From: a virus
Reading direction: 5' to 3' (one strand)
Length of the DNA: 64,000 nt
IMG/VR virus record: IMGVR_UViG_3300045988_103014
Span: 13,780 to 77,779 of that record
The translations under genes and the position numbers were made by a program. Position 1 is the first letter of the stretch; the number at the start of each line of letters is the position of its first letter. Below are positions 24,091 through 24,622 of the stretch, piece after piece. The notes under the pieces are model-generated. The model saw only the letters and a list, made by a program, of their open reading frames with translations, had not been told where the DNA came from and ran no database searches.

Positions 24091-24622
24091 GGACCGTTAG
24101 CTCAATAGGTTAGAGCATCCGGCTCATATCAAGCAATATCATATCTGTGAAAAAAATATGATTGATACAAATATTATTGGTGTAATTACCGAATTAAAAT
24201 GTAAAACTTATTTTTTGGAATTAGGATATACAGTATCCACTCCAGAAAATCCAGCTCGTTATGATTTTATTCTTGATACTGGAGATAAATTATTGAAGGT
24301 TCAGGTAAAAACTTGTAATTGTGATGGAGAAAAACTAAATTTTGCAACTTGTTCAAGTCATTTTGTGAATGGAAAAGTAACTCACACTGACTATAAAACT
24401 GATAACATTGATTATTTTTGCACTTGGTTTGAAAATGAATGTTATTTAGTACCTGTCTCTGAGTGTGGGAAAACTGAAAAGAATTTACGATTAGTTCCTA
24501 CAAAAAATGGACAGGTAAAAGGCATTTATTTTGCTAAGGATTATATTGCTAAGGAGGTTATTCGCAGATAAGTGAACCAGATATGAACCGGACGGCTCTG
24601 GGTTCAAATCCCAGGCGGTCCA
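24091..24622 (+). tRNA. split tRNA-Met/Ile2(CAT): exon 1 24091-24128, 458-nt intervening sequence 24129-24586 in anticodon loop (37/38), exon 2 24587-24622
   Basis: exon 1 = GGACCGT-TA-GCTCAATAGGTTAGAGC-A-TCCGG-CTCATA; exon 2 = A-CCGGA-CGGCT-CTGGG-TTCAAAT-CCCAG-GCGGTCC-A; joined loop CTCATAA; acceptor and anticodon stems only pair across the two pieces. Confidence 0.6.
24158..24571 (+). CDS. intron-encoded protein, putative PD-(D/E)XK-type endonuclease with Cys-rich C-terminus (137 aa)
   Basis: lies wholly inside the tRNA intervening sequence; motif YDFILDTGDKLLKVQVKT (D...QVK); CNCDGEK...C...C cluster. Confidence 0.5.
   Translation: MIDTNIIGVITELKCKTYFLELGYTVSTPENPARYDFILDTGDKLLKVQVKTCNCDGEKLNFATCSSHFVNGKVTHTDYKTDNIDYFCTWFENECYLVPVSECGKTEKNLRLVPTKNGQVKGIYFAKDYIAKEVIRR

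Follow-up and report, generated by a model that had tools for sequence, protein, structure and literature searches.

How a phage can keep a complete nuclease gene in the anticodon loop of one of its transfer RNA (tRNA) genes, and whether a working tRNA is ever recovered from such a gene, is the question raised by a 64,000-nucleotide (nt) stretch of viral DNA (IMG/VR record IMGVR_UViG_3300045988_103014, positions 13,780 to 77,779), which we call the window and which is part of a large phage genome. Within it, a tRNA(CAU) gene is split by a 458-nt intervening sequence that contains an open reading frame (ORF) for a homing endonuclease. We are highly confident that this insert is a mobile, ribozyme-less cassette which carries an I-Ssp6803I-family endonuclease gene at position 36/37 of a phage tRNA, has a conserved helix between anticodon and intron, and belongs to a large family. 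That homing at the DNA level would be followed by protein-dependent excision and ligation at the RNA level is a separate proposal, and one whose chances we consider about even. The locus comprises the following parts, described in nt, amino acids (aa) and base pairs (bp).

24091-24127, + strand: 5' exon of an Ile2-like tRNA(CAU), from the sequence and from ARAGORN in intron mode; acceptor 5' strand at 24091-24097, D arm, anticodon-stem 5' strand at 24118-24122
24123-24127, + strand: C32 to U36, with the anticodon CAT at 24125-24127
24124-24130, + strand: 5' strand of helix alpha, from covariation; U33, anticodon C34 A35 U36 and intron nt 1-3
24128-24585, + strand: intervening sequence of 458 nt between nt 36 and 37; 30-nt leader, ORF, 14-nt tail
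24140-24147, + strand: 5' strand of helix gamma, CATATCTG, in the ORF leader; pairs with 24565-24574
24158-24571, + strand: PD-(D/E)XK homing-endonuclease ORF of the I-Ssp6803I family, 137 aa, PF11645
24565-24574, + strand: 3' strand of helix gamma, CAGATAAGTG, overlapping the TAA stop codon; loops out the ORF
24580-24586, + strand: 3' strand of helix alpha, from covariation; the last six intron nt GAUAUG and A37
24586-24622, + strand: 3' exon, from the sequence and from ARAGORN; A37 and A38, anticodon-stem 3' strand at 24588-24592, variable loop, T arm at 24598-24614, acceptor 3' strand at 24615-24621, discriminator A at 24622, CCA not encoded

That a single tRNA gene lies here in two pieces, as a first-pass annotation made from the DNA letters had proposed, is borne out by its stems. 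The 5' exon reads GGACCGT TA GCTC AATAGGTTA GAGC A TCCGG CTCAT, is followed by the 458 nt, and continues as AA CCGGA CGGCT CTGGG TTCAAAT CCCAG GCGGTCC A; the acceptor stem GGACCGT/GCGGTCC and the anticodon stem TCCGG/CCGGA pair solely between the two pieces, and exons 24091-24127 and 24586-24622 join into a 74-nt tRNA(CAU) of the Ile2 type. With introns allowed, ARAGORN calls a tRNA(cat) at 24091-24623 with a 458-nt intron ('ctcat-Intron-aaccg'), and it accepts the product spliced in silico as a normal tRNA. Both default ARAGORN and the Rfam tRNA model miss the split gene, and interrupted tRNAs generally escape default tRNA finders; in the window, the count is 34 with default ARAGORN and 37 with intron mode. 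Among three E. coli reference tRNAs, the split tRNA comes closest to ileX (tRNA-Ile2), and the two other CAT tRNAs of the window look initiator-like (6176) and elongator Met-like (5951), a typing which leaves the split gene as the only Ile2-type tRNA among the 37.

The insert itself is almost entirely coding, its non-coding part amounting to 44 nt (30 + 14). Its ORF matches PF11645 (PDDEXK_5) with an E value of 9.6e-23 and 81.2 bits against a cut-off of 26.1, and its sole match among solved structures is 2OST, I-Ssp6803I, in an alignment that spans YD(F/L)...LLKVQVK and includes the catalytic LLKVQVK stretch. The residues D36, D40, Q49 and K51 are invariant in nine diverse family members, in which the catalytic D...(E/Q)xK motif is present, and 71 columns are invariant among seven close relatives, each 65-90% identical to the window protein. 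The PD-(D/E)XK nuclease that had been suspected from the translation is therefore confirmed as a member of the family of the cyanobacterial tRNA-fMet intron enzyme, but of the cysteine cluster remarked upon at the same time just one Cys is invariant across the wider family. Judging from its sequence, the encoded nuclease probably cleaves the DNA of uninterrupted alleles.

The element is far from solitary. Viral contigs were scanned with a protein seed and then with an alignment seed, and metagenomes were scanned as well. The protein-seeded scan yielded 10 viral loci with an ORF 65-90% identical, at the same place in the tRNA and with equally short flanks. The alignment-seeded scan added more distant relatives, 40-48% identical, some of which lie inside other tRNAs, namely tRNA-Ser(TGA) (L144 and L147), tRNA-Leu(TAA) (L149) and tRNA-Ile(TAT) (L146), together with three contigs from metagenome-assembled genomes of Clostridia and Bacilli. 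The metagenomes contributed 80 loci, mostly from rumen and human gut, with the ORF within a tRNA in 60 of them; at most viral loci the ORF is likewise inside a tRNA, and it always lies on the tRNA strand. De-duplication left 52 distinct junctions, distributed over the anticodons CAT (13), TGT (17), GTT (10), GAT (4), TAT (3), TGA (3) and TAA (1), the one further junction being a mis-registered TGT; an additional CGT case (L009) has a truncated 5' exon, and at least eight anticodons are found among the interrupted tRNAs. Across the family, which is hosted by Firmicutes-type gut, rumen and Enterococcus phages, inserts measure 450-491 nt, with leaders typically of 12-37 nt and tails of 0-21 nt including the stop codon, which in several members falls within the closing helix. 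No close DNA relatives of the window element were found among deposited phages. A DNA-pattern scan with the 3' tail TAAGTGANNNNGATAYGAA proved too unspecific (120 loci, 4 of them real), and two loci that passed its filter, L019 and L069, are not tRNA.

An uninterrupted copy in related phages, with the ORF elsewhere, had been named as the finding that would speak against such an interruption. The closest relatives keep the ORF at the same site, and it is only distant members of the PF11645 family that stand free beside tRNAs, in Kuttervirus, in Pectobacterium phage My1 and in L141. At three further loci (L143 1430-2052, L148 1440-2040 and L145 1361-1950) the endonuclease gene is bordered by a 5' or 3' piece of a tRNA and lies directly beside an intact tRNA with the same anticodon; these variants may be intermediates between an intron-like and a free-standing lifestyle.

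Where exactly does the insert sit? The window alone leaves its junction ambiguous by one A, because an A follows both junctions, and both 36/37 and 37/38 can be read; the first-pass annotation had chosen 37/38, the site of archaeal and eukaryal introns. The decisive case is EFP01 (L358), a cultured Schiekvirus infecting Enterococcus, which has a 463-nt member of the family in its tRNA-Asn(GTT), not annotated as such, whereas 29 sister Schiekviruses have an uninterrupted tRNA-Asn with near-identical flanks. The tRNA of phiSHEF16 matches EFP01 through ...CTGTT and resumes at AACCAG..., which places the EFP01 insert, with U as its first base and C as its last, precisely between T36 and A37; the target is not duplicated. 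Because this comparison is unambiguous, we assign 36/37 to the window too and abandon 37/38; 36/37 is also the sole register compatible with all family members. The homing-type pattern of presence and absence at one site in otherwise identical alleles is thus seen for the relative EFP01 and not for the window, for which uninterrupted tRNAs bearing its exact spliced junction are abundant in viral contigs, some of them about 90% identical over the whole tRNA.

The most telling property of the family is an RNA structure that ties the insert to the tRNA. We numbered positions +1, +2 and onwards after the anticodon-stem 5' strand and -1, -2 and onwards before its 3' strand, and aligned 49 junctions without gaps in a register set by the anticodon stem, U33 and R37 only, not by the helix. 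In this frame the customary C32xA38 mismatch occupies +1/-1, and pairing runs from +2/-2 to +8/-8, reaching +12/-12 at most. The resulting helix alpha has the 5' junction inside its 5' strand and the 3' junction inside its 3' strand, and its first pair is U33·A37 at every one of the 49 junctions, in exact register with the anticodon stem; the chance of seven Watson-Crick pairs in a fixed register is about (1/4)^7 = 6e-5. Of all cells, 93.6% are paired, compared with 56.5% in shuffles (none of 500 reaches the observed value) and 33-40% in slid-register controls, and both partners have changed at 15 of the 16 pairs. The helix also includes G·U pairs, such as U35·G in all GTT members, which points to pairing in the sense-strand RNA rather than to a DNA inverted repeat. 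The end of the intron follows the anticodon (CAT/ATG, CGT/ACG, TGT/ACA, GAT/ATC, TAT/ATA, TGA/TCA, TAA/TTA, GTT/AGC): the GTT group has AGC wobble-paired to GUU, and in the remaining groups the last three nt are the complementary codon, AUG in the window. The two junctions are three pairs apart in helix alpha, such that cuts there would leave the anticodon as a 3-nt 3' overhang, and in the TGT group both of them lie within a perfect 11-bp duplex.

A second helix, gamma, covaries in the CAT group through at least five sequence variants (ATCTG/CAGAT, ATCTA/TAGAT, ATTTG/CAAAT, ACCTA/TAGGT, ACTTA/TAAGT). The predicted fold of the whole precursor contains both helices and is better than that of shuffles (z = -5.3). 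The RNA thus has a conserved long-range hairpin in which the anticodon stem continues across C32xA38 into helix alpha, and helix gamma closes the ORF into a loop. A closing helix had been proposed from the start in two registers, of which the alternative, 7-bp one (24124-24130/24580-24586) is conserved and the then-favoured 9-bp one (24139-24147/24578-24586) is not: the latter shrinks to about 5 bp in L006, and its internal repeat is missing in other anticodon groups.

Is this, then, an intron of a known kind? Rfam covariance-model searches, conducted at E<=10 and at the gathering threshold, found no intron or ribozyme family in the window insert at E<=10 (24085-24630 and 23000-26000) and no group I, group II or ribozyme match in the inserts of the relatives examined. 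This negative result is meaningful because the same search detects a true group I intron in another phage tRNA at 61.5 bits (L145, 342-560) and, as a weaker control, gives weak Intron_gpI signals in two gaps of the EFP01 terminase gene (24.7 and 20.4 bits). Bacterial tRNA group I introns measure 184-894 nt, the endonuclease-bearing ones all exceed 500 nt, and PF11645 genes are known in tRNA-fMet introns at 33/34 (PMC13011429). The 30 + 14 nt outside our ORF fall well short of the about 180 nt or more that would suffice for a ribozyme, which agrees with the earlier judgement that too little RNA is left for a free-standing group I core. Nor is the group I rule of a conserved terminal G and a U before the 5' junction obeyed across the family. 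The window does have both; over the 52 junctions, however, the insert closes with A in 25 cases, with C in 14 and with G in 13, and always with the complement of nt 34, terminal G occurring only where nt 34 is C. The L010 insert ends in T, and the 5' exon ends in A, not U, in the TGA and TAA groups. On these grounds (no Rfam match, 44 nt of non-coding RNA, unconserved splice-site bases) introns of group I and those of group II were both rejected.

The reading that we propose instead has a DNA and an RNA part. At the DNA level, the enzyme would cut uninterrupted tRNA alleles in the anticodon loop, and repair of the double-strand break would copy the cassette in. At the RNA level, the element would be transcribed within the pre-tRNA, where helix alpha would set both junctions three bp apart in one duplex, flanking an anticodon:codon minihelix. 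Once a protein endonuclease had cut both strands, the 5' exon would end in a 3-nt 3' overhang formed by the anticodon; the minihelix of three pairs would then melt and an RNA ligase, from the phage or from the host, would reseal the 7-nt anticodon loop, with a kinase and a phosphoesterase healing the ends should these be 5'-OH and 2',3'-cyclic phosphate. Helix covariation and intact exons support splicing, by whatever mechanism, indirectly, and we see the protein-dependent form as evenly poised between being right and being wrong. As for the exons, removal of the insert at 36/37 in silico gives products that are recognised as standard tRNAs in 52 of 52 cases, and their stems are paired as fully as those of 263 uninterrupted tRNAs found in these loci, although a comparison of stem mismatches between spliced and normal tRNAs is uninformative beyond equal pair counts because ARAGORN brackets true pairs only.

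The phage's own kinase, phosphoesterase and RNA ligase, pointed out before as a possible protein-dependent route, are present in the window as candidates for the later steps.

37203-38594, + strand: candidate ATP-dependent RNA ligase of the DraRnl type with an N-terminal OB domain, PF09414 and PF21189
46145-46669, + strand: candidate polynucleotide 5'-kinase, AAA_33; Clostridium thermocellum Pnkp kinase domain, Pnkp1
46662-47234, + strand: candidate metallophosphoesterase adjoining the kinase, Metallophos_2

The ligase also matches TIGR02306 (RNA_lig_DRB0094) below its cut-off, and its homologs are annotated as RNA ligase in many phages; the kinase and the metallophosphoesterase together could heal RNA ends. 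The window also encodes a PIN-PhoH2 helicase-nuclease.

A number of observations weigh against splicing. Double-stranded RNA is not known to be cut on its two strands with a 3-nt 3' stagger by any bacterial or phage enzyme; the stagger of RNase III is 2 nt. Among about 50 ORFs of the window, itself part of a genome, neither a splicing endonuclease nor RtcB was found with Pfam and PHROGs, while several ORFs of 280-500 aa at 11.6-18.3 kb, between tRNA clusters, remain without annotation in the same databases. No homolog of the window ligase was found in Enterococcus phages, including the insert-bearing EFP01, so that a DraRnl-type ligase is not a universal partner of these inserts. Both exon tests, moreover, are limited to tRNAs that ARAGORN can detect.

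Other observations of this kind count directly for the alternative that survives best, which we regard as a serious possibility although not a probable one: a selfish insertion that is never spliced, in which a nuclease gene sits at its own cleavage site, inactivates a dispensable tRNA, renders the allele immune and persists through homing drive. An inactivated tRNA had been among the explanations considered at first. The RNA helix would then serve the endonuclease, for instance by resembling its DNA target and so allowing translational autoregulation, by stabilising the mRNA, or by masking the anticodon of a dead pre-tRNA. Such an insertion is favoured by our finding neither a ribozyme nor a known splicing enzyme, and by the absence of any ORF-less derivative with the same helix among 233 ARAGORN intron-mode calls in 2.3 Mb. 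The insert is infrequent in Schiekviruses, where 1 phage of about 30 carries it. Exons are as diverged as introns or more, and the two diverge together weakly (r 0.33-0.37 in two groups, no correlation in a third), for which reason invasions look recent and repeated and the intact exons may be those of freshly invaded resident tRNAs. The truncated exon of L009, the three loci that combine a tRNA fragment, the nuclease gene and an intact tRNA, and the free-standing family members by tRNAs all point the same way, as does the share of AUA, which makes up 9% of the Ile codons in the window ORFs. What this alternative explains poorly is the fit between insert and tRNA. The helix keeps the exact register of the anticodon stem in 49 of 49 junctions and has been re-fitted to at least eight anticodons, and a role in stability or regulation is disfavoured because neither would require it. 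Whenever the insert is taken out at 36/37, a canonical 7-nt loop and a well-paired tRNA result. It also counts against this alternative that the split gene is the sole Ile2-type tRNA among 37, and that of L006 the sole elongator-Met type nearby.

Within the protein-dependent reading, a testable but unlikely version would give the encoded PD-(D/E)XK protein two roles, as homing and as splicing endonuclease, giving a self-contained, protein-spliced mobile intron that would need only an RNA ligase. The anticodon stem and helix alpha appear, from comparison of the sequences, to be an RNA copy of the left half and centre of the nuclease's DNA target, a resemblance that would also suit the selfish insertion. 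Speculatively, the RNA junctions (36/+1 and last intron base/A37) lie where cuts would be expected from a symmetric enzyme with its centre at nt 35 and with 3-nt 3' overhangs as its products, a geometry described for I-Ssp6803I. PD-(D/E)XK folds do include RNA-cutting enzymes, for example tRNA splicing endonucleases (PMC3424549).

Self-splicing by an unrecognised RNA catalyst, either hidden within the ORF or assembled from the short flanks together with the body of the tRNA, is very unlikely. The precursor fold that beats shuffles and the conservation of helices alpha and gamma would be in its favour, and ORF-embedded group I cores are known in organelles. However, Rfam found no ribozyme or intron family although its group I controls worked, and synonymous positions differ from one end of the ORF to the other, with identical-codon fractions of 0.49-0.79 in 15-codon windows; these results, together with the unconserved splice-site bases, make the compact ORF-embedded ribozyme envisaged at first unlikely. 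Identity to the window protein is only 40-50% for nucleases from other anticodon groups, and a common conserved nucleotide core is for that reason impossible. The non-coding RNA can shrink to about 20-35 nt, with the stop codon inside helix alpha in some members, and the perfect 11-bp duplex of the TGT group would presumably be unfavourable for in-line attack.

For group I and bulge-helix-bulge introns jointly we see at most a slim chance. An archaeal/eukaryal-type intron cut at a bulge-helix-bulge by an EndA-like enzyme is highly improbable: in its favour are the pairing of anticodon and intron, known also from eukaryal and archaeal pre-tRNAs, the presence of enzymes for healing and sealing, and the possibility of reading the window alone as a 37/38 insertion, but the junction is 36/37, the helix is continuous from +2/-2 (U33·A37) for 7-11 bp, two 3-nt bulges separated by a 4-bp helix fit in none of the registers drawn by hand for 36/37 and 37/38, and PF01974 (EndA/Sen type) has no match among about 40 scanned window ORFs. 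Least tenable of all, because the data contradict it, is an ordinary group I intron into which a homing-endonuclease ORF has been inserted. In its favour are the U at the end of the window's 5' exon, the G at the end of its insert, the 36/37 site, which is that of the Azoarcus intron too, and a nuclease family shared with the tRNA-fMet intron (PMC13011429). Against it are the lack of an Intron_gpI match at E<=10 with positive controls, a terminal G that is simply the complement of C34 where relatives end in A, C or T, an A before the 5' junction in two groups, and the mere 44 nt outside the ORF where endonuclease-bearing introns exceed 500 nt (PMC13011429).

The element resembles several known systems and differs from each of them. 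Bacterial and phage tRNA introns are thought to be self-splicing and of group I, rarely of group II. In tRNA-Ile(CAU), the Azoarcus-type group I intron of subgroup IC3 is a ribozyme of about 205 nt that has no ORF, and the window shares with it the tRNA type, the CAU/A junction, the U before the 5' junction and the terminal G; the present element, on the other hand, has no catalytic core, and its terminal G is not conserved in the family. The cyanobacterial tRNA-fMet group I intron (I-Ssp6803I; PF11645; 2OST) is likewise mobile, located in the anticodon loop of a CAU-anticodon tRNA and equipped with the same Pfam nuclease, but it is a full self-splicing ribozyme of more than 500 nt at 33/34 (PMC13011429), as opposed to 458 ribozyme-less nt at 36/37, and it has an internal guide sequence forming P1 where the 3' end of our element pairs with the anticodon.

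Archaeal bulge-helix-bulge introns (some with LAGLIDADG nucleases) and eukaryal introns also lack a ribozyme, pair with the anticodon and loop out their ORF, and removal in either case would need an endonuclease and a ligase. Unlike them, the present element lies at 36/37 rather than 37/38, has a continuous duplex with junctions three pairs apart and no bulge-helix-bulge motif, occurs in phages of bacteria, and is accompanied by no EndA homolog among the scanned window ORFs. Bacterial rRNA intervening sequences are ORF-less and are removed by RNase III with a 2-nt stagger and without religation, leaving fragmented rRNA. The likeness is an extra, extended helix on a stable-RNA helix that is removed, as we propose here, by a protein enzyme; the difference is that a tRNA cut in its anticodon loop needs religation and that the geometry required here would be a 3-nt stagger. 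Finally, free-standing endonucleases of phage tRNA clusters such as T4 SegB target tRNA genes and travel with tRNA arrays (PMC8421152), whereas the present gene lies inside the tRNA, right after the anticodon, with a conserved RNA helix.

In the literature that we searched, the coverage of which is incomplete, no description of this class of elements was found: a whole family of endonuclease-bearing tRNA interruptions with no ribozyme, yet with a conserved helix pairing an intron-borne codon with the anticodon. If the inserts are spliced, they would represent a protein-based route of tRNA splicing in bacteria or their phages, provide a natural substrate for phage RNA ligase and kinase-phosphatase systems or for RtcB, and bear on the origin of archaeal and eukaryal protein-spliced introns from mobile introns; should the nuclease prove to act in both roles, this would be the first case in bacterial viruses of a tRNA splicing system that depends on protein. 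Without splicing, the inserts would instead illustrate cleanly how a homing endonuclease can survive by destroying tRNA genes, with an RNA mimic of its own DNA target. Splicing is directly testable, because one member resides in the cultured Enterococcus phage EFP01.

Several further observations concern other interruptions in these phages. The group I intron of L145 (317-630, core 342-560) is genuine, about 227 nt long, ORF-less and placed in a class-II tRNA of a viral contig; it is a self-splicing-type intron in a phage tRNA, which according to a 2014 review had not been observed, all phage introns known by then lying in protein-coding genes (PMC3984707). EFP01 is intron-rich, with its terminase large-subunit gene (12903-17653) annotated in four pieces with ORFs between them, and its anaerobic ribonucleotide reductase gene is split as well. 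A second type of tRNA interruption affects the anticodon stem, whose 5' strand (about 28/29 to 31/32) contains inserts of 39-53 nt, a length much below that of any group I or II intron. They occur at window 23433-23549 and 25059-25191, L001 1506-1630, L002 654-791, L010 45-166 and L141 2007-2129, and their hosts include a class-I tRNA, with GAG as the best reading of its anticodon, and tRNA-Leu(TAA). In the window, L001 and L002 the insert comprises about 10 nt, a covarying hairpin of 5-6 bp, the motif (N)CGACNGCAA(T) and about 9 nt, and the motif is missing from L010 and L141; the exact 12-mer GCGAC[AT]GCAATT is found in the window solely at the two short-insert sites.

Related loci also bear signs of an altered genetic code. 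Several endonuclease ORFs (L144, L146, L147, L149) have in-frame TAG codons at otherwise conserved positions, and tRNA(CTA) genes are found at L146 1252-1344, L147 1080-1152 and L152 2353-2445, which together suggests TAG-recoded phages. TTA-anticodon tRNAs, reading UAA, are present at L010 45-166 and L002 5471-5543. Between the tRNA(CTA) and the interrupted tRNA-Ile(TAT) of L146, at 1344-1411, there is a weak match to a Faecalibacterium HDV-like ribozyme (29.8 bits, E 0.08, below threshold).

In the window itself, positions 4-903 encode a full sigma-70-type factor with regions 1.2, 2, 3 and 4, and a further tRNA-like sequence at 6335-6406 (Rfam, 39 bits) is not called by ARAGORN. RNA-related cargo at 26166-27707, 29042-29866 and 30797-33268 comprises a DUF2828/DUF7788 protein, a Thg1-like tRNA 5'-end repair enzyme and an 823-aa protein with major-vault-protein shoulder and repeat domains. 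The genes at 39524-44888 (isochorismatase-family, phosphoribosyltransferase, NAPRTase-family, NAD synthase and a NADAR domain protein) look like a phage pathway for NAD+ salvage or replenishment. Weak YrlA-like (Y RNA-like) matches occur in the related loci L148, L304 and L147 and in EFP01, and ROOL RNA genes lie in or beside the tRNA clusters of the window (2007-2608) and of other insert-bearing phages (L009 4969-5640, L002 5894-6408 and EFP01 21240-21826).

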